Source of the DNA: Calditrichaceae bacterium
GTDB taxonomy: Bacteria > Calditrichota > Calditrichia > Calditrichales > JBFXGD01
DNA: 64,000 nt
Direction of reading: 5' to 3'
Assembly (NCBI GenBank): GCA_050173015.1
Contig: JBFXLE010000004.1
Coordinates: 1 to 64,000, forward strand
This document shows positions 1 through 39,215 of this stretch, piece by piece. The notes beneath the pieces were generated by a model. The model did no database searches. It was not told the origin of the DNA and saw nothing but the letters and a program-made list of their open reading frames with translations. The translations under genes and the position numbers were made by a program. Within the stretch, counting starts at the first letter, position 1. Every line of letters starts with the position of its first letter.

Positions 1-371
1 ATTTGATTTGTACTTTTATCCATAGCTGTTTCTCTAATTTAGTTTTTGTTTTTTTGTTTCGCTAAAACAATATAAAACAATTACTTGTTAGAGAAAACAG
101 CTTTTTTTATGAATTATTCAGGTTAGACAATAAATCTCAGGAGATAAAAACTAATATTGTCAATGAGGATAATATTACTGGTTTACATGATCTTATTAAG
201 AAAGAAATTAATATTGAAACTATTAATCTTCTCCCCCCTTATTTTCAAGAAATAAGAAACAACTTATCCAATGCGATTAGAAATTTTTCCATTATAACCT
301 TTAATAATATTGGGGACACAGAAGTTGCAATAAAAACCCTACGATATGCGCTTGATATTAAAATTGATGGA

Positions 372-1595
372 ATGACAAAAGATAATATTGAAAAGGACCT
401 TTTACAGATCGAGAATATTATTAATGAGCGAAAAGAAACAGAAAAATATGAACCTATTTTAAAGAAATTTGCTCGCATCATTATACATTCAAAAAAACTG
501 ATAGAGCAAATGGACAACAAGAATACAAATCCTAAAACAGTTTTAGAAGAAATTCAACAAAGTGTAAGCATAATTGAATTGAATTCTTTACCTAATGTTT
601 TTGATGAAGTTAAAATTCAATTTGCATATACTCTTCGAAATCTTTCTGTGGCTATTTGGAACGCTTATAACGATGAAGAATCAGCGATTACATTAATTAT
701 TCTTGCTCTTGAAATAGATACTCCCAATGAAATAATTGAAAAATTAGATGAAGAGTACAATCATTTATTAAGTTTCCGTGAAGAAAAGAAGAAACTAGGT
801 AAGCCAATTGATTCAACCCCATCTTTATATCTCATAAATGGATGTGGAACGGTTCTATATGGTATGACACAATATTTTGTAATACTCGGAATACCTATAA
901 TTCCTATCGCCAGATATTCTTACGAAAAAATTTCTTCGTCAGAGTACAGGTTTTTTGGAAAATTAGAATTAAATAAATTTCAAAAATTTTGGAAATATGG
1001 CCTATTAGGTGGAGTTTTGATTTGGTTAGTAATTTTACTTTCACAAGCAAACACCAGTACTAAATATTATTCAAAAACTAGCAATAATTCCTTAACAAAA
1101 AAAACAGGGTCAATACAAAATACTAATAATGCTAATAGTAAATATAGGGGGCATCAATTAAAAAATGGTGATTCTCCTTTTAATAATTATTTTGGCAAGG
1201 GAATCTATAATAAAAATAATGAAAATTGGATACAAGTTGAAACAGACCAATATGATGTTGTTGTTTGTTTGGTTGATTACTCTTCAGAAAGAACAATTAG
1301 GAATGAATATATAAGAGCAAGATCAACATTTCAAATGACAAATATTCCTAATGGTACATATTATATTAAGGGATTTTTTGGTAAAGATTGGAATCCTACA
1401 AAATATATAAATTTAGGTAAAATTAAGGGTGGTTTTGATACAGACGTTCATTTTAGCAAAACTTCTGGAAGTAATAGTATTTTCACTCTACAAGATGATG
1501 GATATCAATATAGTACCATAAAGATTATATTATATAGTGTCATAGATGGTAACACACAGCAAACAAATATTAATGAAGATGAATTTTTTAAATAG
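372..1595 (+). CDS. Membrane-anchored protein with N-terminal helical repeats and a C-terminal extracytoplasmic beta domain; 5' end probably truncated (frame is open back to nt 66)
   Basis: Hydrophobic segments QYFVILGIPIIP and GLLGGVLIWLVILLS. The open frame 66-371 encodes a second copy of the repeat (LLPPYFQEIRNNLSNAIRNFS vs SLPNVFDEVKIQFAYTLRNLS). First gene of a tight operon with Hsp70. Confidence 0.7.
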   Translation: MTKDNIEKDLLQIENIINERKETEKYEPILKKFARIIIHSKKLIEQMDNKNTNPKTVLEEIQQSVSIIELNSLPNVFDEVKIQFAYTLRNLSVAIWNAYNDEESAITLIILALEIDTPNEIIEKLDEEYNHLLSFREEKKKLGKPIDSTPSLYLINGCGTVLYGMTQYFVILGIPIIPIARYSYEKISSSEYRFFGKLELNKFQKFWKYGLLGGVLIWLVILLSQANTSTKYYSKTSNNSLTKKTGSIQNTNNANSKYRGHQLKNGDSPFNNYFGKGIYNKNNENWIQVETDQYDVVVCLVDYSSERTIRNEYIRARSTFQMTNIPNGTYYIKGFFGKDWNPTKYINLGKIKGGFDTDVHFSKTSGSNSIFTLQDDGYQYSTIKIILYSVIDGNTQQTNINEDEFFK

Positions 1596-1606
1596 GTGAT
1601 CTTATA

Positions 1607-1993
1607 ATGATCAAACAATTACAAATCCCAATAGAATTTAAATATTTTTGTTTTATTATAAACCAACTATTTGAAATCGAAAAAAAAACTAACAAATTAA
1701 TTGAAGAAAATTCTATTGGAAGAAATATCCAAAAATTACGAGAATATTTTGAAAATAATATTTTTAGTGATGAATTAGGTTTATCGTACCATTCACCATT
1801 AGGTGAAAGCTTTAATGAAACACGTACTGATTGTGAAGCGAGTATTGCGGGTAGTAGTACCGAAAATTTATTAATCACCGAAGTCATAAAACCCGTTATA
1901 AGAGTTCATCAAGGGGATAGAACATTTATAATACAAAAGGCTGTTGTTATCGTTGAATCTCAAAAAGCGACGAAAGGCAAAAAAAATGGATAA
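1607..1993 (+). CDS. Divergent GrpE-like (nucleotide exchange factor-like) protein
   Basis: N-terminal helix plus PLGESFNE...EVIKPVIR...IIQKAVVIV, resembling the GrpE beta domain; overlaps the Hsp70 start. Confidence 0.55.
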   Translation: MIKQLQIPIEFKYFCFIINQLFEIEKKTNKLIEENSIGRNIQKLREYFENNIFSDELGLSYHSPLGESFNETRTDCEASIAGSSTENLLITEVIKPVIRVHQGDRTFIIQKAVVIVESQKATKGKKNG

Positions 1994-4469
1994 AATGATT
2001 AATTTTGGAATAGACTTAGGTACAACCAATTCTATAATTGCAAAATTTGATAAAGGCGAAGTGACTATTTTTAAAGACCCTATAAGTTGGAAAGAAACAC
2101 TTCCATCAGTTGTTTCCTTTAGAAAAGATAAAATAAATATTGGACAAAAAGCTAAAGAATATCTAGAAAAATCACCAAAAAATGTTTTATCATTATTTAA
2201 AAGGAAAATGGGTACCAATGAATCATTTAAAATCCAATCTATTAATAATTCTGTTACACCAATAGAATTATCTGCTTATGTATTAAAGGAATTAAAAAAC
2301 TTTATCCAAACAGGTGAAAAAATTGAATCTGTTGTAATCACCATTCCAGCTTCCTTTGATACTGTTCAATCTAATGCAACCAAAGAAGCTGGTTATAAAG
2401 CAGGGTTTCAACAAGTTGTTCTATTACAGGAACCAATAGCCGCAAGTCTTGCTTATGCAAATAAAACTAATATTGGAAAATTAAAAGATGGCCAGTGGAT
2501 TGTTTATGATTTAGGTGGAGGTACGTTTGATGTTGCATTAATAAAAATAAATGATGGTGAAATGAAAATTATGGATCATGAAGGAGATAATTTTTTAGGT
2601 GGTAGTGATTTTGATAATATTATCGTCGAGAAATTAATTATTCCAATATTAGAAAAAGATTTTGGTTTCGAAAATCTGGAAAAGGAAATGAAAAGTAATT
2701 CTGGGAAATTCAATTCATTGTATTATATAGCGCGGAATAAAGCTGAACAGGCGAAGATACAACTCTCAGCTAAATCTTCTGCGGAAATTGAGTTTGACCT
2801 TACTGATGATGATGGTGTATTACATGAAGTAAATATTGCAATTACAAGATCAGAATTTGATAATGTAATAAAAAAATATATAGATTTAACAGTAGAAATG
2901 ATAAAGAAAATTATGGCACGAAATAAATTTACTAACAATGATATAGATTTTATACTTATGGTTGGTGGCTCAACTTATATACCCTATGTTAGAAACAGGG
3001 TAAGTGAAACATTACAAATACCTATAAACTGTGAGATTGATCCTACTAATGCCGTTGGAATTGGTGCTGCTTTTTATGCAGGTACAAAGCAGAAAAAACT
3101 GCTTGAAAGTAAAAAACCAACTCAACATCAAACTAATCTATCGATCAAAATGGCATATCAAAAAGCCACTAATGAAACAGAAGAATTTTTTGCTGCTAAA
3201 ATAGATGGAAATACCGAAGGTTTATTTTATCGTATATTTCGTGAAGACAGTGGTTTTGATACAGGTATAAAACCTTTATCTTCAAAAATTACTGAAGATT
3301 TACCGTTAGTTATAGAAAGTTATAATTTCTTTAAATTAACACTTTATGATGCACACAATAATCCATTAAATATTGATTTAGATCCTATAGAAATCGCTCA
3401 AGGAAAATATAGTGTTGCAGGACAGCCATTACCAAATGATATATGCTTAGAAGTTGATGATTATGAAGGTAAATCTACAAGATTAGAACTCATTTTTAAA
3501 AAGAATTCCATTCTTCCTTTATCGCATACAATATCAAAAGAAATAAATAAAATGATTGTTAAAAGTTCTGAAGATTTTCTAAGGATTAATATTTTGGAAG
3601 GTCCACATTATGCGCTACCTGAAGCAAATAAAAGTATTGGCTTTCTCGAGATTAATGGCAAGCAAATTAGCCGCGATATTGCAAAAGGTTCAAATATAGA
3701 AATGAAATTTGAAATTTCAGAATCACGCGATTTATCTGTTTCTGCATACTTAACTATGACAGATCAGGAATTTAAAAACCTTTTTAATGAAAATGTTAGA
3801 AGCGTGCCAGTAAATATATTATCAGAACAAATCATGAATTTATCGAAAAGGATTGAAGAAGAGATAAATATCGCAAAAGATTTAGAAAATTATGAATCTG
3901 TAAAAGAATTAAATAAGATTAAAACTAATATTGATGAATTAACTGGTGAATCTTTGGTGTTAGAAATAGATGATATAACAGATTCACGCTATCAAATAGA
4001 AGATAAAAAGTGTAAGATTGCTCAAGAAATTTATTTAGCAACTCAAGATAAAGAAGTTGAAATTGCAAAGAGCACTTACTTTGAGATGAAACAAAAATGT
4101 GATGATACAATTATTGAAAATGGTAATGATATTGAAAGAAAACATTTTAATGATATAATAAAACAGGAACCAATATTTCTAAATTCAAAAAGTGCTCTTA
4201 AAATTCGTGAAAAAACAGATAAATTAGATGAGATAACTTGGATAATAAATTGGCGTACACCTGCATTTTTAATAGGTGCATTTAAGTGGCTTATTGGTGA
4301 ACGACAAAGGTTAAATAATCAAGAACAAGCAAAAAGTTTAATTGAAGCTGGCAAATTTGCAATTGAGAGTGAAAATTTTGATAGACTTTATGAAGTTGTT
4401 CATAATTTAATGAACTCGTTACCAACCACATCTCTGGATGAAATGAAATTAAAGATTGGTTTTTATTAG
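1986..4469 (+). CDS. Hsp70-family protein (non-canonical DnaK paralogue with extended C-terminus)
   Basis: GIDLGTTNS, TIPASF, EPIAASLAY, YDLGGGTFDVA, LGGSDFD and LMVGGSTYIP motifs; ~827 aa from ATG 1986. Confidence 0.92.
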   Translation: MDKMINFGIDLGTTNSIIAKFDKGEVTIFKDPISWKETLPSVVSFRKDKINIGQKAKEYLEKSPKNVLSLFKRKMGTNESFKIQSINNSVTPIELSAYVLKELKNFIQTGEKIESVVITIPASFDTVQSNATKEAGYKAGFQQVVLLQEPIAASLAYANKTNIGKLKDGQWIVYDLGGGTFDVALIKINDGEMKIMDHEGDNFLGGSDFDNIIVEKLIIPILEKDFGFENLEKEMKSNSGKFNSLYYIARNKAEQAKIQLSAKSSAEIEFDLTDDDGVLHEVNIAITRSEFDNVIKKYIDLTVEMIKKIMARNKFTNNDIDFILMVGGSTYIPYVRNRVSETLQIPINCEIDPTNAVGIGAAFYAGTKQKKLLESKKPTQHQTNLSIKMAYQKATNETEEFFAAKIDGNTEGLFYRIFREDSGFDTGIKPLSSKITEDLPLVIESYNFFKLTLYDAHNNPLNIDLDPIEIAQGKYSVAGQPLPNDICLEVDDYEGKSTRLELIFKKNSILPLSHTISKEINKMIVKSSEDFLRINILEGPHYALPEANKSIGFLEINGKQISRDIAKGSNIEMKFEISESRDLSVSAYLTMTDQEFKNLFNENVRSVPVNILSEQIMNLSKRIEEEINIAKDLENYESVKELNKIKTNIDELTGESLVLEIDDITDSRYQIEDKKCKIAQEIYLATQDKEVEIAKSTYFEMKQKCDDTIIENGNDIERKHFNDIIKQEPIFLNSKSALKIREKTDKLDEITWIINWRTPAFLIGAFKWLIGERQRLNNQEQAKSLIEAGKFAIESENFDRLYEVVHNLMNSLPTTSLDEMKLKIGFY

Positions 4470-4497
4470 GAGACAGTTCCCTCAAAGGATATTAAAA

Positions 4498-4968
4498 ATG
4501 ATTGGTACTTCTTTTGAAATACTACTTTTTAGATCTGCTTTTGCAGTAATGGCATGTGATGGTGAAATTCATGAAGATGAAATTTCTATTTTTCGAAGTA
4601 TTTCAAATTCTAATCCATATTTCGCTGACCTTAATTTTGAGAAAGAATTAGATATCGCATTAAATGCTATCAAATCTCAAGGTATCCACTATATAAACCA
4701 AATTCTAGAATCCTTAAAATCATTGGTTCTAAAAGAAAAACAAAAACTTTTGTTAATAGAAGTTATTTTAAAAATAATGGATGCAGATAAAAAGGTTGAT
4801 GAGAATGAACTAAAGTTTTTAAAAACTATTACAAACATTTTAGATATCAGTGAAGAAATACTTATTATGAAATTTCCAACTCATATAAATGCCTTTTTAA
4901 ACATGTCTGATTTTTCTGCAAACCTTAGCTTTAAGGTTATAGAAAATAATATTGATAATCCCAACTAA
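4498..4968 (+). CDS. TerB-family (tellurite resistance B-like) protein
   Basis: AVMACDGEIHEDE and IMDADKKVDENE metal-binding motifs. Confidence 0.85.
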   Translation: MIGTSFEILLFRSAFAVMACDGEIHEDEISIFRSISNSNPYFADLNFEKELDIALNAIKSQGIHYINQILESLKSLVLKEKQKLLLIEVILKIMDADKKVDENELKFLKTITNILDISEEILIMKFPTHINAFLNMSDFSANLSFKVIENNIDNPN

Positions 4969-4981
4969 AGTTTTTTTGAGC

Positions 4982-5078
4982 AACTAACAACAGCATTAAG
5001 TAGGAATTTAACCGTCGGAGCATGATTCAGGGTTTGAAGTTATTACACAGTTAAATCCTCTTATGCTCAACGTTAGCA
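4982..5078 (+). other. Integron attC site
   Basis: AACTAAC ... GTTAGCA with imperfect inner palindrome (AGCATTAAG/CTTATGCT, AGGAATTTAA/TTAAATCCT) and extrahelical bases. Confidence 0.9.
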
Positions 5079-5104
5079 TTCAATAATAATAAAGGATATC
5101 TACA

Positions 5105-5599
5105 ATGAGATTCGAAAGTATGAAGGATATCAAAGCAGAAGGATTTACTGGATTTGAAAAAATTGGCGCTCTGATGTCAAATGAATGTGTCAATGTTCCA
5201 AATGTTAAAGGTATTTACTTAGTATTAATAAATGAAAAACCAAATTTTTTAGAAAAAAATACTGGCGGTCATTTCAAGAGGAAAAATCCAACAGTTCCCA
5301 TTTCAATATTGGAGTCAAACTGGGTAGATAATGCAATTGTAATTTATATTGGAAAAGCCGGTGGTGGCACTTCAAAAGCAACTTTAAAATCCCGCCTAAA
5401 ACAATATATGAAATTTGGCAGTGGACAACCGGTTGGTCATTGGGGTGGTAGATTGATTTGGCAGTTATCAGATAATAAAGAATTTACCATTTGTTGGAAA
5501 GCAACTCCGAACGACAATCCGAGAGAATTAGAAAAAGATTTAATTGCTGAATTTGAAAACAATTATTCGAAAAAACCTTTTGCGAATTTGCAAGGATAG
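5105..5599 (+). CDS. GIY-YIG-like nuclease
   Basis: KGIYLV...VIYIGKAG...LKSRLKQY...ELEKDLI...PFAN. Confidence 0.75.
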   Translation: MRFESMKDIKAEGFTGFEKIGALMSNECVNVPNVKGIYLVLINEKPNFLEKNTGGHFKRKNPTVPISILESNWVDNAIVIYIGKAGGGTSKATLKSRLKQYMKFGSGQPVGHWGGRLIWQLSDNKEFTICWKATPNDNPRELEKDLIAEFENNYSKKPFANLQG

Positions 5600-5604
5600 A
5601 CTTC

Positions 5605-6312
5605 ATGTCACCTGAACAATATGAAATTCACGTAGCAGATTATTTTAAAAAAAACGGTTATCAAGTTGAACTAACTAGTTTCACAAATGACTATGGTGTT
5701 GATGTTTTTGCTATAAAAGATTCGATTAAATATGCGATTCAAGCGAAAATGTTCGGAAATACTTCAAGAAAAATAAATAGAAAAATGGTTATGGAATTGC
5801 ATGGTGCTAAAGATTATTTTGACTGCAACCATGCAATTATTGTTACTGATGGTGAAATACTCCAAGATGCGAAACAAGTAGCGGATAAATTAAATATAGA
5901 GTTAATCTACTTATCTGCTAATTCGGTTATCAATGAAAACCACGAAACTGATTTGAACTTTGACTCAATATGGCAAAAATATATTATGCCGCTTCAGGGT
6001 AAAACTCTCTTTAGAGAAAATGGTGAGAAAAATGTAATTACAAAAGTTGATTGGGGTGGAATTGAACGAATTACATCTAATCAAAAATCACAAAACATAG
6101 ATATTGAAATTTTCAAACAGACTATTAACCATCTTCTAAGACAAGGCAGTATAACCAGAAAGAAAATAAACGAAGAATATTCAAAAAGGGCTTCATCAGG
6201 AATAGTATTGATTTTATCTCAAGTACCCTTTATTGAATTAGATTTAAATAGACCAATGAGTTTGAAGTTGTTAAAAAAATCTAAAATACTTACTGATACA
6301 TATTTATCGTAA
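5605..6312 (+). CDS. Mrr-like (type IV) PD-(D/E)xK restriction endonuclease with additional C-terminal domain
   Basis: EQYEIHVADYF...DYGVDVFA...AIQAK Mrr catalytic motifs. Confidence 0.85.
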   Translation: MSPEQYEIHVADYFKKNGYQVELTSFTNDYGVDVFAIKDSIKYAIQAKMFGNTSRKINRKMVMELHGAKDYFDCNHAIIVTDGEILQDAKQVADKLNIELIYLSANSVINENHETDLNFDSIWQKYIMPLQGKTLFRENGEKNVITKVDWGGIERITSNQKSQNIDIEIFKQTINHLLRQGSITRKKINEEYSKRASSGIVLILSQVPFIELDLNRPMSLKLLKKSKILTDTYLS

Positions 6313-6334
6313 GCAATCAACAATAAAATTTACT

Positions 6335-7084
6335 ATGGGTTTTGAAAAAACATTTGAACACATGATGGAACTCTGGATTACTCCGGAAATTGAAAAACGA
6401 CAAAAGGAAAATCTAATTGAAAAACCTTATAAACTTGATGCAGCTCAAGTAATATTTTTTCCTGATAGCAGAAAACCTTTGATACTTTTAAATAGAGAAA
6501 TAAAAGCAATTACAAAAGTCAAATTAAAGAAAGGAATTACAAAAGAAAAAGGTGATCCAATTTATGAAAACGAAATTGATGGGATTCATAGCATCAAAAT
6601 TCCAGCTGAAGTTGATCCTGATTCTGGGCATATTACCGCAATTAGGATTCAAGATAAATGGATACTTTCTTTTGATTTTATATATAATAAAGAGTTCTCT
6701 CAAAAACATATTATTAATGGAAATCAATTTTTAGAATTGGCTAAAATAGCATTATCTTCAAAATATTGGGGAGCCTTTATCGATAATTTATTCAGTGCCG
6801 CCGAACTTTATGTTAAAGCATTATTGCTTTTCCATCCAGATCCAAAATTGAGGAACAAAGATACCCACAAATTAATTCATAATCGATACAATAAATTTGC
6901 TAATTTAGGCAACGTCCCGATTGAGCAGAAGAATGTCTTTAATAAATTAACAAGCGCAAGAAGAGATGCAAGATATTTGAAATCTGAATTTCACATTACG
7001 GAAGAAGAAGCAAATTACTATTTAAACATTGTAGATGATATGAAAATAGAAGCAGAAAAACATCTTATTAATAAGGAATCATAG
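6335..7084 (+). CDS. HEPN domain-containing protein with uncharacterised N-terminal domain
   Basis: C-terminal LFSAAELYVKALL...THKLI...LTSARRDARY (HEPN Rx4Y-type motif). Confidence 0.7.
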   Translation: MGFEKTFEHMMELWITPEIEKRQKENLIEKPYKLDAAQVIFFPDSRKPLILLNREIKAITKVKLKKGITKEKGDPIYENEIDGIHSIKIPAEVDPDSGHITAIRIQDKWILSFDFIYNKEFSQKHIINGNQFLELAKIALSSKYWGAFIDNLFSAAELYVKALLLFHPDPKLRNKDTHKLIHNRYNKFANLGNVPIEQKNVFNKLTSARRDARYLKSEFHITEEEANYYLNIVDDMKIEAEKHLINKES

Positions 7085-7086
7085 AG

Positions 7087-7248
7087 ATGTCAAAATATGA
7101 CGAACAAGTAAAAGAAATTGAAGAATGTCCAGAATGTGGATTACCCGGTGAAATGCAACCACCACCAGAAGAAAAAGGGAAAAAATTAATTATTACCTTT
7201 ATTTGCCCAAATGGACATACATATCAAAAAATTATTGATCTAAAGTAA
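7087..7248 (+). CDS. Small Zn-ribbon protein (53 aa; below the ORF-track cut-off)
   Basis: MSKYDEQVKEIEECPECGLPGEMQPPPEEKGKKLIITFICPNGHTYQKIIDLK*; CxxC...CxxGH; starts 2 nt after the HEPN stop and its stop abuts the attC. Confidence 0.7.
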   Translation: MSKYDEQVKEIEECPECGLPGEMQPPPEEKGKKLIITFICPNGHTYQKIIDLK

Positions 7249-9311: not shown

Positions 9312-9575
9312 ATGATTTATTGGGATTTTGAAAAGAATAATAAATTAATTACTGAAAGGAATATTTCATTTGATGAAATTTCTGAATTAATCTTAAAAGA
9401 AGAATATTTGGATATTTTAGAAAATCCGAACCGAAAGGATCAATTTTTATTTATTATTTGTTTAAAGGATTATATTTATGCTGTTCCATTTGTTATTGAT
9501 GAGCATGAAAACATCATATTAAAAACAGCATATCCGAGTAGAAAGTTTAATAAAATTTATGGTGATCAATTATGA
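9312..9575 (+). CDS. BrnT-like type II toxin
   Basis: WDFEKNNKLITERNISFDE...LKTAYPSRK; 4-nt overlap with the antitoxin. Confidence 0.8.
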   Translation: MIYWDFEKNNKLITERNISFDEISELILKEEYLDILENPNRKDQFLFIICLKDYIYAVPFVIDEHENIILKTAYPSRKFNKIYGDQL

Positions 9576-9880
9576 AAGATATAAAACTAGATAGCTTTGA
9601 AAAAGAGATTGAGAATGATGCTGAAGAATATGTTAAAGCATCAAAGAAAACAAGGCAAAGAGTTACAAAAATAATATCAAAAGCAAATGAAAAAAATCGA
9701 GTAACTCTCCGGTTAAGTAACCAAACATTGGAATCAATAAAGCGAAAAGCCCAGGAAGAAGGCCTCCCCTATCAGACATTTATTTCAAGTATCTTATATA
9801 AATATGCTACAGATCAATTGATGGATGAAAAACATATTTTGAAATCGCTTCGTTTATTAAAGAAACAAACAGTGGTATAA
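9572..9880 (+). CDS. BrnA/CopG-like ribbon-helix-helix antitoxin
   Basis: RVTLRLS...IKRKAQEEGLPYQTFISSILYKY. Confidence 0.85.
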   Translation: MKDIKLDSFEKEIENDAEEYVKASKKTRQRVTKIISKANEKNRVTLRLSNQTLESIKRKAQEEGLPYQTFISSILYKYATDQLMDEKHILKSLRLLKKQTVV

Positions 9881-35155: not shown

Positions 35156-35554
35156 ATGAGAAAGATAATATTTTTGTTGTGGATCGTATTTATCAGTTTG
35201 CTAATCAGTTGCGATGAAAACTCACGTTTGAGTTTAGCATTTTCACCACCCAAATGTACACTCGCGGAATTGGAAAAAAAGGACTATACTCCGGGTAGTT
35301 TTGCCCGTATCAGTTATAAGGCAACAAATGTTAGCGATCCCATTGCCTTCAGTGTCGCATGTATAATAAAACTAAAAAAGGGAAATTTAATTGTAGACCG
35401 GAGCAGCGTATATTTTGGAACACTTGAATCAGGTGAATCATCCATAGAAGATGCTGTATTTTCAAAAATAAAAACACATACAGAATATGACGATGTCGAA
35501 ATTACCTTATCATGGTACGATGCAAATAATGAATATTACGAAAAGTCATATTAA
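35156..35554 (+). CDS. Hypothetical lipoprotein
   Basis: Lipobox LLISC. Confidence 0.75.
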   Translation: MRKIIFLLWIVFISLLISCDENSRLSLAFSPPKCTLAELEKKDYTPGSFARISYKATNVSDPIAFSVACIIKLKKGNLIVDRSSVYFGTLESGESSIEDAVFSKIKTHTEYDDVEITLSWYDANNEYYEKSY

Positions 35555-35596: not shown

Positions 35597-35822
35597 TTTC
35601 TACAAAAATTCATCCCTCCGGGATTGGGATTAATGAATAAATTGAAAACTCTGGGTTGATGTAACAATGTTAAATAGATTGGATATGGAAACCCGACGCC
35701 GGAGGCGTCACAGCTTAGTAGAATAGGGATTCCGTGGTGTGTTGTTCGACCCCGACGGGGTCGCAGAAAGATGTGGTGTCTGTTTTTCTATTAACGTGTA
35801 ATCCCTTCGGGATTGGGAATAA
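35597..35822. repeat. Cluster of REP-like short hairpins
   Basis: ATCCC-TCC-GGGAT, GACGCC-GGA-GGCGTC, CGACCCC-GAC-GGGGTCG, AATCCC-TTC-GGGATT; a related copy lies at 48050-48120. Confidence 0.7.
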
Positions 35823-36133
35823 GCGTATGTATTAAAACCCGGAGTGTCTAAAAATTGTAATGAGAAAGGTTTAAAACGTTTGCGCGAAAGTTAAGCCACC
35901 CTTGAAAATTTCATCCTTTTGTTTATAATAATAACGTTATTATTTCATCTTTTGTCTTTTTGCTTCAATCATTGAAAATGTGTACAAAGTTGATTTTGAT
36001 ATAGATGTCAGCTCATTTTTTGGATAATATTTCAGGCCGGTTTTAAGAAAAAAAGAAAATAATGGTTTTGGTTGTTTTCAAAAAGGTCCTGGTCTATTCA
36101 GCGTAGGAGCGTATTGTTCCCGACGGATAATTT

Positions 36134-36211
36134 TTCTAATATTGGAAACATTTTTTTTTCTAACATTAGAATAAGTTTTCTATATTTAGAAAAAGTTTTC
36201 CAATATTGGAA
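36134..36211. promoter_or_regulatory. Array of four palindromic operator-like boxes, consensus TTCYAATATTRGAA
   Basis: TTCTAATATTGGAA (36134), TTCTAACATTAGAA (36158), TTCTATATTTAGAA (36178), TTCCAATATTGGAA (36198). Confidence 0.75.
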
Positions 36212-36276
36212 TAAAATGATAATTAACAGAGACATCTAATTAATATGTTAGCCCTTAATATAAAAGTTACAGGTAT

Positions 36277-37518
36277 ATGAAGATGAAATTGATTACGACA
36301 ATATTATTAGTAATTTTTGTTTTTGGATCTGCTTTTTCCCAATCATCTTACACTGGACAGACAGTAGAAGACTTATTCGACTTGCCTGAAGAAGAAATAA
36401 ATATCGGGGTTGCTTCTCTAGTTTTGGCAAAAGAATTCTATCCTGATATGAACGTTGATTTCTTCCTTTATAGTTTTGATTATATGGCTCAACGATTTAG
36501 TGAAGTGTTTGGACAATATGAAAATCCTGATGAAAGAGTGCGTGCCTTGAACACATATTTTTACAAATCAGGTTTTTGGAATGATGGGATAACTTTCAGT
36601 TATGATGATGACGATTTACATGTGACCAAATTAAGTAACAGATTTATTAATGGTTATATTGCAACGAAGAAAGGCTCCTGCATTACGATGCCTTTGCTTT
36701 ATGTAATAATCGGTGAAAGGTTAGGATGGCCGATATATCCTGTTCGTTCAGCAAAACACTTCTTTGTTCGTTATATTCCAAAAGAATTGTCTTTTAACTT
36801 CCAGCAAAATATTGAAACCACCAATGGCGGTTCATTTATATCTGATGAGCAATATAAATTAGACGTTCAAATTCCTGACAAAGCGATTGAGAACGGTGTC
36901 TATTTACGAACTCTTTCAAAAAAAGAATATTTAGCATCCCTTCTTTTAATCAACGCCAATCAACATCTTGAAAATAACAACATTGAAATCGCCAAAAATT
37001 ATTTTAGAATCGCAATTAGATATGATTCTACTTTATCATCAGCCTATTGGAATTATGCCCTTATTCATTTTGCAGAAGCAAGAAAATTAGAAGAAGAACT
37101 ATATAACGAACAACAAACAGAAATTTCTTATTATGAAATTCAAGCGATGAATAAGAAGAATCAGTATATATATCCAAACCAGAATAAACCGACACAAAAG
37201 AATCTTATGGATTATTTGAAGATTAAAACACCTGATAAAGCCGCTTTTGAGACTTTTAACCATACGATTCCAGAGACTAAAGAAGTCAAATCCACGTCAA
37301 ATAAAAATATCTCGCTAACTTCGAATCAGAAAATAGAATTACAAACTTCACTGATGGAAATTGAAGAAAAATATAAACCAAAAATTCTTGCCAAACTTGA
37401 TGTTTATCGTGAGTATAAAAATAAAGCAGAAGAATTGGGAATTGTAACAAAGTATCCATTAGAGTTTTTTATTAAACAATCAGAAAGTCTAAAGCGATTT
37501 AAAGAGAAAGGAAATTAA
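36277..37518 (+). CDS. Secreted SirB1-like transglutaminase/papain-fold protein with TPR and C-terminal helical region
   Basis: Signal peptide (AFS-Q); KKGSCITMPLLYVIIGERLG, AKHFFVRY, NIETTNGG; TPR-like AKNYFRIAIRYD...AYWNYA. Confidence 0.8.
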   Translation: MKMKLITTILLVIFVFGSAFSQSSYTGQTVEDLFDLPEEEINIGVASLVLAKEFYPDMNVDFFLYSFDYMAQRFSEVFGQYENPDERVRALNTYFYKSGFWNDGITFSYDDDDLHVTKLSNRFINGYIATKKGSCITMPLLYVIIGERLGWPIYPVRSAKHFFVRYIPKELSFNFQQNIETTNGGSFISDEQYKLDVQIPDKAIENGVYLRTLSKKEYLASLLLINANQHLENNNIEIAKNYFRIAIRYDSTLSSAYWNYALIHFAEARKLEEELYNEQQTEISYYEIQAMNKKNQYIYPNQNKPTQKNLMDYLKIKTPDKAAFETFNHTIPETKEVKSTSNKNISLTSNQKIELQTSLMEIEEKYKPKILAKLDVYREYKNKAEELGIVTKYPLEFFIKQSESLKRFKEKGN

Positions 37519-37519
37519 G

Positions 37520-38281
37520 ATGAGATGGTTATCACTATCCACAATTTTATTATTTGTTTTGTCAAACCTATTATTTGCTGGTCGTTATTATGATGCCGCA
37601 ACTGGAAGGTTTATGCAAATTGATCCCCATTCTTCCAAATATCCATCTGTAAGTCCCTATAATTATACTTTAAATAATCCTCTTAAAAATATTGATCCGG
37701 ATGGTAAGGATGTTTTGGATGCAATTACGGGCAAACCTTTAACAGTTACTGAAATGACATCAAGAACAAAAAACCTAATAACGCAAATGAATTCATCATC
37801 AAAAGGTATTTTTGCTTCAAACGTTATTACTACTCATTCAAATTTTAGAGAAGATTTATACCAAATATGGGGTGGTCGCCAAGTAGACTGGGGTGGCACA
37901 ATGGGTTTTACATTTTTTGGAACTCAAACTGGATATCCAAGATATACAATGAATACAATGTTTACTTTAAATAATGAAAATATTAATGCCGGTTGGACTA
38001 CTCAAATGACAGCCTCTCCTTCATTACAATTAAATCCTGCGTTATCTAATGATTACAATCAAAACATATATAATTTGTCATTCGGTGCAACAACATTTGA
38101 TGCAGAAGGTAATTCTGTTCATTCTGATTATGTTATTAAAATAACTGGTACAATTGCTGAGATTAACTTCGCACTTGCTGGTACTGGGTATGAATTATAT
38201 AAAAATGATAAGGGTAAATATATATTTAGACAGATTGTAGAAGATAAGGAAGAAGATGAGAAGGAAAAGAATGATGAATAG
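37520..38281 (+). CDS. Signal peptide + Rhs-associated core + unknown C-terminal (putative toxin) domain
   Basis: MRWLSLSTILLFVLSNLLFA-GRYYDAATGRFMQIDP...SPYNYTLNNPLKNIDPDGK; no YD-repeat shell. Confidence 0.85.
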   Translation: MRWLSLSTILLFVLSNLLFAGRYYDAATGRFMQIDPHSSKYPSVSPYNYTLNNPLKNIDPDGKDVLDAITGKPLTVTEMTSRTKNLITQMNSSSKGIFASNVITTHSNFREDLYQIWGGRQVDWGGTMGFTFFGTQTGYPRYTMNTMFTLNNENINAGWTTQMTASPSLQLNPALSNDYNQNIYNLSFGATTFDAEGNSVHSDYVIKITGTIAEINFALAGTGYELYKNDKGKYIFRQIVEDKEEDEKEKNDE

Positions 38282-39095
38282 AATTATAATTTTATCTTTA
38301 GTTGTTTTTTTTTCAAATTGTAAAATGAATGAAATTGATAGCCAAAAGAATATGATATTAATTCCTGGTGGTTCTTTTTTTATAGGTACTGATACATCCA
38401 CTGCAATTAAGTTTGCTAATAATAATCCAACTTTATGTGATTTTTCATGGTTTACAGACCAATTTCCGAAACATAAAGTTTCAATAGATACATTTTATAT
38501 CGATAAATATGAAGTAACCATTGGTGAATACGAAGATTTTATTTCAGCAACTAATTATGTTTCTATCGGTGATTGGAAAAGTTATTATAATTTCCTAAAG
38601 GATTCATTAAAATTAAATAAGAATATTAGAAACTTTCCCATAGCAGGTATCACTTGGGATGATGCATTTGAATATTGTAATTGGAAAGGAAAAAGATTAC
38701 CAACAGAAGCTGAATGGGAATATGTAGCAAAGGGTAGAACAAAAGATTTAGCATACCCGTGGGGGATGTACTATGATTCTTCAAAAGGAAATGTTCAAAA
38801 TATTAAAGGCCCACTACCAGTTGGTAATTTCTTACCTAATAGTTACGGTGTTTTTGACCTTGGTGGGAATGTTCAAGAGTGGTGCTATGATATATATGAC
38901 AAAGATTATTATGCCATTGCAGACTCAATAAACCCAAAAGGTCCAAAGGAAGGCCTAAGTAGAGTGGTCAGGGGGGGAAGTTGGTATCTAAATGGGAAAT
39001 TTTATTCAAGGTCTGCTACGAGATCAACTACATTGTATAAAGATAATTATATTAATCTAGTCGGATTTAGATGTGCCAAAAACTATAAAGACTAA
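38271..39095 (+). CDS. Formylglycine-generating enzyme (SUMF1/FGE-sulfatase) domain lipoprotein, putative immunity protein
   Basis: Lipobox FFSNC; DKYEVT, RLPTEAEWEY, GNVQEW, RVVRGGSW, GFRCA; overlaps the upstream stop. Confidence 0.88.
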   Translation: MMNRIIILSLVVFFSNCKMNEIDSQKNMILIPGGSFFIGTDTSTAIKFANNNPTLCDFSWFTDQFPKHKVSIDTFYIDKYEVTIGEYEDFISATNYVSIGDWKSYYNFLKDSLKLNKNIRNFPIAGITWDDAFEYCNWKGKRLPTEAEWEYVAKGRTKDLAYPWGMYYDSSKGNVQNIKGPLPVGNFLPNSYGVFDLGGNVQEWCYDIYDKDYYAIADSINPKGPKEGLSRVVRGGSWYLNGKFYSRSATRSTTLYKDNYINLVGFRCAKNYKD

Positions 39096-39111
39096 TTATA
39101 GTGTAATTTAG

Positions 39112-39215
39112 GGCTAACCAATCATTCGAGCTGACGGGAAACGCGGGGGATGATTTTCGGTTTTATCTTTAAATTTTGGGCTACTTATTCCCGCAGCTCA
39201 ATTCTAACGTTAGTG
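39112..39215 (+). other. Integron attC site (intact, isolated)
   Basis: GGCTAAC ... GTTAGTG; ATTCGAGCTGACGGGAA/TTCCCGCAGCTCAAT arms with two extrahelical bases. Confidence 0.9.

Follow-up and report, generated by a model that had tools for sequence, protein, structure and literature searches.

A probable polymorphic toxin cassette in a Calditrichaceae bacterium joins a Sec signal peptide to half an Rhs core and pairs it with a separate PF13369 protein

The first 64,000 nucleotides (nt) of contig JBFXLE010000004.1 (assembly GCA_050173015.1, Calditrichaceae bacterium), referred to as the window, contain three adjacent genes which very probably form a dedicated toxin cassette. Gene 1 encodes a SirB1-like protein, gene 2 (the cartridge) a signal peptide fused to part of an Rhs core and a variable C-terminal domain (the tip), and gene 3 a presumed immunity protein. 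The genes and the features within them are as follows.

36277..37518, + strand: gene 1, 413 amino acids (aa); predicted secreted toxin partner of family PF13369 (SirB1-like, transglutaminase/papain fold, TPR-like helices and a long helical hairpin)
36277..36339, + strand: predicted Sec signal peptide of gene 1 (residues 1-21), from the sequence and its hydrophobic stretch
36679..36681, + strand: Cys135 of gene 1, predicted nucleophile, 65/65 in alignment A1
36757..36759, + strand: His161 of gene 1, predicted catalytic histidine, 65/65 in alignment A1
36808..36816, + strand: Asn178-x-Glu180 of gene 1; Asn178 in 65/65, position 180 with 63 Glu and 2 Asp
37520-38281, + strand: gene 2, 253 aa, starting 1 nt past the gene 1 stop codon
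37520..37579, + strand: predicted Sec signal peptide of gene 2 (residues 1-20), a 20-residue hydrophobic leader
37580..37705, + strand: half Rhs core (residues 21-62, with Arg22, Asp35 and Asp59), TIGR03696 match with E = 1.2e-10
37706..38278, + strand: variable C-terminal domain, presumed toxin, matching no known family
38271..39095, + strand: gene 3, 274 aa, predicted lipoprotein with an FGE-sulfatase domain, presumed immunity protein

The sequence-only reading, which a model had made of this DNA, described three coupled AT-rich genes, and this layout was confirmed: besides the spacing of 1 nt between genes 1 and 2, the open reading frames (ORFs) of genes 2 and 3 overlap by 11 nt (an alternative, longer start of gene 3 at 38256 is possible), and at 31.6% the GC content of the cassette is below that of the window (38.6%) and that of the genome (41.9%). 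Its end at 39215, however, was set too far, 120 nt beyond the last stop codon. A 2589-nt contig from an independent metagenome (run X2, another study) spans 36573-39163 with 2 substitutions and 2 gaps; because of this near-identical contig, the cassette is not considered an assembly artefact. The low-share metagenome runs X3-X5 gave short pieces only over the cassette. Promoter and terminator scans at the cassette yielded results at chance level. Signal peptides were assessed by inspection and a crude hydropathy proxy; judged in this way, all three products carry the export signals that had been proposed for them, that of gene 3 with an atypical lipobox, and all three would leave the cytoplasm via Sec.

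Gene 2 covers positions 35-75 of the 76 positions of the TIGR03696 model, which is the second half of the Rhs-associated core. The earlier proposal that removal of the leader exposes exactly the Rhs core was therefore too wide and applies to the second half, from the catalytic arginine onwards. The predicted mature N-terminus lies on or one residue before Arg22, and Arg22 aligns with residue 650 of YenC2, which we take to be the catalytic arginine of Rhs autocleavage. Arg22, Asp35 and Asp59 are invariant in 46/46 homologues; homologues had been selected by a pattern that contained both aspartates but not Arg22. At the predicted cleavage site, Ala occupies position -1 in 40/46 and Gly position +1 in 39/46 homologues, and the leader of 57/59 complete homologues contains a hydrophobic stretch. 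According to published work, Rhs autocleavage is driven by two aspartates and a nearby arginine (PMC8765631, PMC8636562, PMC13018210), and the plug domain of solved Rhs proteins comprises ~95 residues (PMC8636562). The shortened core thus appears to retain all three catalytic residues and about half of the plug domain. As had been stated, YD repeats are absent: no YD family was found in gene 2 using Pfam and NCBIfam, no YD/RHS repeat family in 103 scanned products, and the complete homologues have 182-311 aa. Several variants of the cartridge exist. The core of the rhizobial and of the linker variants is without the first Arg, a ~35-residue linker before the RF motif (Arg-Phe) is combined with a shorter gene 1 at five loci (L003, L004, L024, L057, L141), and a proteobacterial cartridge type starts at RF (L093, L127-L130). 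Acidic or basic tails are not general among cartridges (17/67).

The product of gene 1 matches PF13369 (Transglut_core2) at residues 68-193 with E = 3.6e-12 and 46.5 bits, against a Pfam cut-off of 23.5. The sequence-only reading had called it SirB1-like with a Cys/His/Glu triad and TPR; family and residues held up, and for TPR there is only a match to TPR_16 below the cut-off (residues 227-274, E = 0.016). Conservation was determined in alignment A1, which comprises 65 gene 1 homologues taken from phmmer hits, down to 39% identity. The nucleophilic Cys is missing from 7/7 housekeeping SirB1-like ORFs examined, and an N-terminal hydrophobic stretch is present in 69/74 full-length gene 1 homologues versus 1/7 of the housekeeping ORFs. 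The Asn178-x-Glu180 motif aligns by eye with an Asp-bearing motif of the latter, and Glu180 is the likelier third triad residue, rather than Asn178. An AlphaFold model of gene 1 reached a predicted local distance difference test (pLDDT) value of 88 and a predicted template modelling score (pTM) of 0.84. Its closest fold is menin (Z 13.8, root-mean-square deviation 4.2, 247 aligned residues), followed by the transglutaminase TglA (Z 8.7); TglA, PNGase and NAT all lie at Z 7-9. Foldseek returned no match for the model at E 0.001 and menin only at E 0.006, and a sequence search for solved relatives of gene 1 found none apart from TPR matches. PMC10318531 states that the function of the PF13369 family is unknown and describes human menin as a scaffold without the Cys. 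With conserved triad residues and a similar fold, gene 1 is a putative active papain/transglutaminase-fold enzyme, and its conserved Cys is probably needed for function; a protease and a ligase role would be about equally likely. Two further PF13369-like cases were noted. One is a secreted Cys-bearing protein of 537+ aa, whose TPR tail is long (L136:3-1613, G094:C45) and which belongs to a separate subfamily; the other is that of the tandem Cys-bearing homologues at L095/L096, which are without cartridges.

Searches with gene 2 yielded 41 homologues, mostly matching its first quarter only, and most of them consist of leader, core and unrelated tails; searches with gene 1 yielded 215. A locus search with gene 1 as a single protein found nothing, but with a gene 1 alignment as the query 36 genome and 49 metagenome loci were obtained. 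Among 100 gene 1 ORFs of at least 100 bits, 83 were informative, i.e., their end lies within the locus with 300 nt room. A core-bearing signal-peptide gene follows within ≤ 250 nt in 78 of these 83 (61/65 clusters at 90% identity), counts which include the window and some duplicate loci. The gene pair thus recurs elsewhere, and complete signal-peptide proteins, not fragments of Rhs genes, make up the homologues of gene 2; this contradicts two of the outcomes by which the sequence-only reading would have been refuted. The five exceptions comprise three broken gene 1 copies with a cartridge nearby, one case at a locus edge and one gene 1 homologue standing alone. The last lies in a Geobacteraceae genome (L042:1430-2365), has an intact Cys motif and no cartridge downstream. 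None of 11 distant SirB1-like ORFs (L005-L011, L095, L096) is followed by a core gene. The gap between genes 1 and 2 measures -4 to +1 nt in 35/66 cases. When the search was reversed and cores were sought in 86 genomes of the phylum (30 loci), the three signal-fused cores, including that of the window, adjoin gene 1, and none of the remaining, non-signal-fused cores has a gene 1 beside it. Later samples of the class and phylum contained the triplet in 5/8 loci, and the other three genomes have a half-core beside gene 1. Carriage is patchy (3/60 relatives, 6/301 genomes, 2/401 genomes and 5/72,556 plasmids). Carriers belong to Calditrichota, Ignavibacteria, KSB1, Balneolales, Latescibacterota, a deltaproteobacterial group and rhizobia; more proteobacterial members are known by name only. 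No relative was found in viral contigs. At one Bacteroidota-type locus (L028:888-1199) the cassette lies directly behind a truncated conventional rhs orphan, which suggests landing in rhs arrays.

Behind the conserved core, the cartridges diverge. The 59 distinct complete cartridges (182-311 aa) were grouped into 33 C-terminal families and 53 third genes into 41 families; the region after DPxG and the third gene accordingly vary as had been expected, while gene 1 is conserved. Third genes are shared in 15/42 pairs with the same tip, compared to 1/1336 pairs with different tips. The window and L048 share 95% identity over the catalytic part of gene 1 but 82% over the core and 25% over the C-terminus. 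Core identity tracks that of gene 1 (rho 0.59) and C-terminal identity hardly does (0.17), with related loci not being independent. Toxin or cell-wall enzyme families were matched by 21/103 scanned products, three of them below the Pfam cut-off, and include NlpC/P60, M23, VanY, YkuD, Tlde1, TseH, Peptidase_M91, Ntox44 and Tox-REase-9; OCRE matches were discarded as spurious. Imm32, Imm53, LRR, HEAT and TPR occur among 60 third genes, with SUKH nearby. Whole triplets stand in tandem at four loci (L017, L022, L024, L051), and additional cartridges with their own signal peptide were seen at six (L013, L029, L036, L040, L070, L080).

For the tip of the window itself, no Pfam or NCBIfam family was found, which agrees with the ~190 aa of unrecognised sequence reported before; the best Atlas match (0.78) is below 0.9 and a lead only, and the fold predicted from the single sequence has a pLDDT of 36. 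A search of 1.84 billion representatives gave 8 matches for this tip, among them P0005, which has the same mini architecture, and P0165, a conventional rhs cassette. Since the tip occurs in both, tips seem to move between mini and conventional rhs systems, and new toxin/immunity pairs would be exchanged by recombination at the core, from a pool common to conventional rhs genes. Gene 3 matches FGE-sulfatase PF03781 (E = 5e-50), and Cys17 follows a hydrophobic stretch; of the FGE lipoprotein in immunity position that had been proposed, the domain and the position stand and the lipobox is atypical. FGE-like immunity proteins are also cited in PMC10777753. Considering its position and the covariation of third gene and tip, gene 3 is presumed to be the immunity protein. 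Taken together, the cassette passes the sequence tests of a polymorphic toxin system (a constant N-terminus with variable tips, known toxin domains and a tip-linked third gene), which supports the notion of a purpose-built system.

Association of the first two products was modelled with mature gene 1 and residues 21-72 of gene 2. The complex scored 0.62 (runs 0.62, 0.66 and 0.31), compared to 0.00 for the best of three controls; the mark used is reached by 116/157 solved pairs versus 2/215 mismatched pairs. The tightest contacts are made by Arg30-Phe31-Met32 of the core and involve the invariant gene 1 residues Asn92, Gly99 and Trp101; Glu180 touches as well. A sequence search for a solved complex resembling gene 1 with the core found none. 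Modelling therefore supports the partnership which the sequence-only reading had suggested, and gene 1 quite probably binds the half core, with a predicted site around Arg30-Phe31.

Three carrier genomes (G088, a single chromosome, G364 and G771) contain the mini core as their sole TIGR03696 match, and in G088 no YD shell was found with PF25023. Because these genomes are without any other Rhs core, no cage seems to be needed, and a general requirement for a cage in trans was rejected for the type of the window. Other carriers also hold full Rhs genes elsewhere. The assembly of the window's own genome (97.5% complete) gave no cage when searched with TIGR01643, with PF12256 and with five cage fragments, although an orphan array in it runs up to a contig edge. 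This array (G000 C26:54719-62539) consists of five orphan rhs cassettes of the conventional kind, whose immunity genes are of membrane type and among which two pairs are nearly duplicated. The term shell-less, used in the sequence-only reading, is hence appropriate for loci of the Calditrichota, Ignavibacteria and KSB1 type, but not for three rhizobial loci with a cage gene upstream, which are discussed below.

With respect to export, genes resembling a type II secretion system (T2SS) or pilus flank 12/87 loci (by Pfam in 5, the rest by similarity), a raw count without a background rate, over loci many of which are short. Within these clusters, the cassette follows a secretin, follows or precedes a GspF-like gene, or follows PilO/P-like genes or a pseudopilin; a secretin fragment lies upstream at L130 and a secretin-like end upstream at L145. 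A match of L042 in the similarity search for secretion genes was discarded as spurious. The window's own genome has one unlinked T2SS/pilus-like cluster (C2:72.7-84.4 kb) with a PilT-like gene recognised by eye, and VgrG-type PF05954 was not found in this genome. Whether the complex crosses the outer membrane via such a type II secretion or pilus-type machine is, in our estimate, an even bet.

The following mechanism is proposed for this purpose-built polymorphic toxin cassette, which would serve interbacterial conflict. Signal peptidase would expose the 42-residue Rhs core peptide, which keeps its Arg/Asp/Asp set. Too short alone, the core would dock 1:1 via its RF motif on the co-translated, menin-like gene 1 product, as modelled, and gene 1 would take over from the YD cage the roles of a scaffold for folding and of a carrier. 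The Cys-His-Glu site of gene 1 would most likely perform an acyl-transfer maturation, either toxin release or tethering of the cartridge. The C-terminal domain, freed after DPxG, would attack neighbours, and gene 3 would shield the producer, in this case at the outer side of the inner membrane. We consider the mechanism as a whole somewhat more probable than not. Several observations weigh against it. The core piece that is kept amounts to about half of the ~95-residue plug domain, and self-cleavage may fail. The residue after DPxG is mostly K/R (37/66) and L in only 5/66, compared to a consensus of DPxG-W/L/F in studied Rhs proteins (PMC8765631). In the complex model, Cys135 and His161 are absent from the confident contacts, one of the three runs scored 0.31, the runs agree in only at least 37% of contacts, and the pLDDT of the partner is about 37-60 with alignments built by ourselves. 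Unrelated third genes are found in 27/42 pairs of the same tip family, and 82/103 C-termini, including that of the window, match no toxin family. Related loci are not independent in any of the counts given. The window and 75/87 loci lie outside a secretion cluster, again with the background rate not computed. Finally, the five orphan cassettes of the window's own genome reach a contig end, and a cage gene may be unassembled.

The rhizobial loci allow another explanation. At L127 (Rhizobium lentis), L128 (Neorhizobium) and L130 (R. leguminosarum), the frame of a YD cage stops just past the RF motif of the core and overlaps the start of gene 1 by 4 nt, and the predicted mature N-terminus of the cartridge lies at that RF position. 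In related rhs genes that are intact (L131-L134), the frame continues across this junction. Gene 1 could then be a sortase-like transpeptidase which cuts the cage in the RF tail at the C-terminus and links it to the free N-terminus of the cartridge, so that the two pieces of a split Rhs are united and a single cage could serve many toxins; variants of this idea are loading by strand exchange and, in cage-less lineages, another surface protein or the enzyme itself as acceptor. This fits several observations. The cage tail resembles the cartridge start, the first catalytic Arg is on the cage piece and not on the cartridge, and both L127 and L128 have a cage that is annotated as whole (about 1830 and 1850 aa), the two cages being 50% and the two gene 1 products 64% identical. 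Furthermore, the modelled binding site of gene 1 is the RF motif, and 12/18 differences between the tails of L127 and L130 are at third codon positions (p = 0.004), although this is one pair of 15 codons and two 5-codon comparisons with L128 were not significant. On the other hand, cage DNA is upstream in only 3/5 rhizobial plasmid records, one of them broken by an insertion sequence, and the two Mesorhizobium records have a transposase upstream, with no cage in the one that was read (L129). Among the loci listed of the 87 genome and metagenome loci, no cage gene is upstream of gene 1, three genomes have no other Rhs core, and the cartridges of cage-less genomes carry the Arg themselves. The same layout would also result from gene conversion of an orphan-like cassette onto the main rhs gene. 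The junction may therefore be either a scar left when the cassette arose out of an rhs gene or part of a functional split Rhs whose pieces gene 1 joins, and the second is considered unlikely. Similarly doubtful is the general form of this idea, in which gene 1 is a transpeptidase joining swappable cartridges outside the cytoplasm to a cage in rhizobia or to another acceptor, with the cage-less forms derived. A Sinorhizobium plasmid (L133, minus strand 9417-9700) shows a cage fragment that ends at the RF junction and is followed by a signal-peptide cartridge without gene 1 between them.

Instead of catalysing a reaction, gene 1 might be a menin-like peptide-binding chaperone with a structural or vestigial Cys, whose bound core cleaves itself. 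Menin is the top fold match and, in its human form, a scaffold without the Cys, Cys135 and His161 are outside the confident interface while the Rhs Arg/Asp/Asp set is kept, and inactive N-terminal transglutaminase domains of secreted RHS toxins are described in PMC3482391. Nevertheless, Cys and His are invariant in all 65 homologues down to 39% identity and the housekeeping relatives are without the Cys, and this explanation, too, is rated improbable. Less likely still, the cassette would be no contact weapon but a periplasmic or secreted effector, or a horizontally spread addiction module, with gene 2 products that act in the medium or on the envelope of the producer itself. Many of the assigned C-termini being cell-wall enzymes, the patchy presence, the low GC content and the missing VgrG-type gene in the window's own genome would agree with it, but the signal-peptide nuclease tips (Ntox44, Tox-REase-9) are sensible only if they reach the cytoplasm of another cell, and tips are common to conventional Rhs systems (P0165). 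That the cartridges are headless rhs remnants which came to lie behind a SirB1-like gene by chance is very improbable: orphan rhs cassettes do occur commonly, and this genome has them too, but they keep the upstream core half and have no signal peptide, whereas the cores of the cassette are preceded by a signal peptide whose position is fixed, always have the same kind of partner and keep their frames intact in several phyla. A dedicated toxin cassette is hence the preferred interpretation.

Compared to known systems, the cassette shares with the Rhs/YD-repeat toxins (T6SS Rhs, where T6SS denotes type VI secretion system, WapA, Tc B/C and teneurin-like proteins) the DPxG-ended core with Arg/Asp/Asp, a variable tip, downstream immunity and the toxin pool. 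It differs in having no YD barrel and no PAAR/VgrG, in placing the last 42 core residues behind a Sec signal and in its separate fixed partner. Orphan rhs-CT/immunity cassettes likewise have a short core, a tip and an immunity gene and are often arrayed, but they keep the upstream core half, whereas the mini cartridges have their own start and signal peptide and their core match begins at about TIGR03696 position 33-35. In PMC9825190, orphan rhs genes are regarded as cryptic recombination donors. Judged from its sequence, the cassette would work like an Rhs polymorphic toxin system, but its product is no Rhs protein, having no barrel, and it is no orphan cassette either. S8-PTS and MafB-type polymorphic toxins are small and Sec-exported, and a partner or peptidase gene is dedicated to them; they have no Rhs core and other partner families, a distinction made by description and not by sequence. 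FGE-like T6SS immunity proteins, with an FGE domain beside the effector, were reportedly found by Lopez et al. in 2021; the FGE gene here is one of 41 interchangeable third-gene families. PF13369 and menin are linked to gene 1 by a family match and a menin-like layout of transglutaminase fold and TPR, but housekeeping SirB1/PF13369 members have neither the Cys nor a signal peptide. The Sec/T2SS-exported RHS toxins of Zhang et al. 2012 (PMC3482391) have in common the signal peptide, the transglutaminase fold and the RHS toxin; there, RHS repeats follow a transglutaminase domain that is part of the same protein and catalytically dead, whereas the cassette has a separate PF13369 protein with invariant Cys and His and no repeats. 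This fused inactive transglutaminase is the nearest description in the literature searched. The arrangement of a signal-peptide half-core with a PF13369 partner seems to be undescribed; it was not found in the full-text literature searched, a scope that excludes subscription journals and supplements, above all the gene-neighbourhood tables of PMC3482391.

Upstream of gene 1, one further feature was recorded.

36134..36211, no strand: array of palindromic TTC-N8-GAA boxes (possible operator)

The corresponding ~100-nt element of four boxes (window 36131-36214) occurs at five places in the genome; the other arrays are at G000 C1:72707, C3:2668, C20:76618 and C20:79872, some beside RadC-like and DNA methylase-like genes (by eye). 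Such boxes were found upstream of just 4/59 homologous genes and are not a general part of the cassette; L048 has a related array. The array is possibly an operator array of horizontally acquired genes. Further upstream, a repeated element (window 35600-35830) with the direct repeat ATCCC..GGGATTGG, whose contig depth is high in several of the runs, is probably a dispersed REP-like sequence, and 35156-35554, ending 720 nt upstream of gene 1, encodes a predicted lipoprotein of 132 aa without Pfam or NCBIfam family, which could be an orphan immunity gene. A second AT-rich island (window 1-7100, 27-33% GC) contains Hsp70-like, TerB-like and restriction-endonuclease-like ORFs (by eye). Very long ORFs (2100-3900 aa) at G000 C9:25476-76014 resemble a non-ribosomal peptide synthetase pathway, also by eye.

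To our knowledge, the tip of all studied Rhs toxins is inside or on a barrel of ~100 kDa. The cassette suggests that a 42-residue core may be usable without this barrel in several phyla, a conserved enzyme taking the barrel's place. For one branch of PF13369, the family that resembles menin in bacteria, this would give the first testable role and substrate, and an orphan enzyme family would gain a function. A route via Sec and a secretin is suggested for nucleases and wall hydrolases. If the ligase interpretation were true, gene 1 would represent a new protein-joining chemistry, in which Rhs warheads are exchanged at the protein level by enzyme-catalysed trans-splicing. In practice, gene 1 is a simple marker for collecting dozens of unassigned toxin/immunity pairs, and many short genes labelled as remnants with an 'RHS core domain' may be live toxins.

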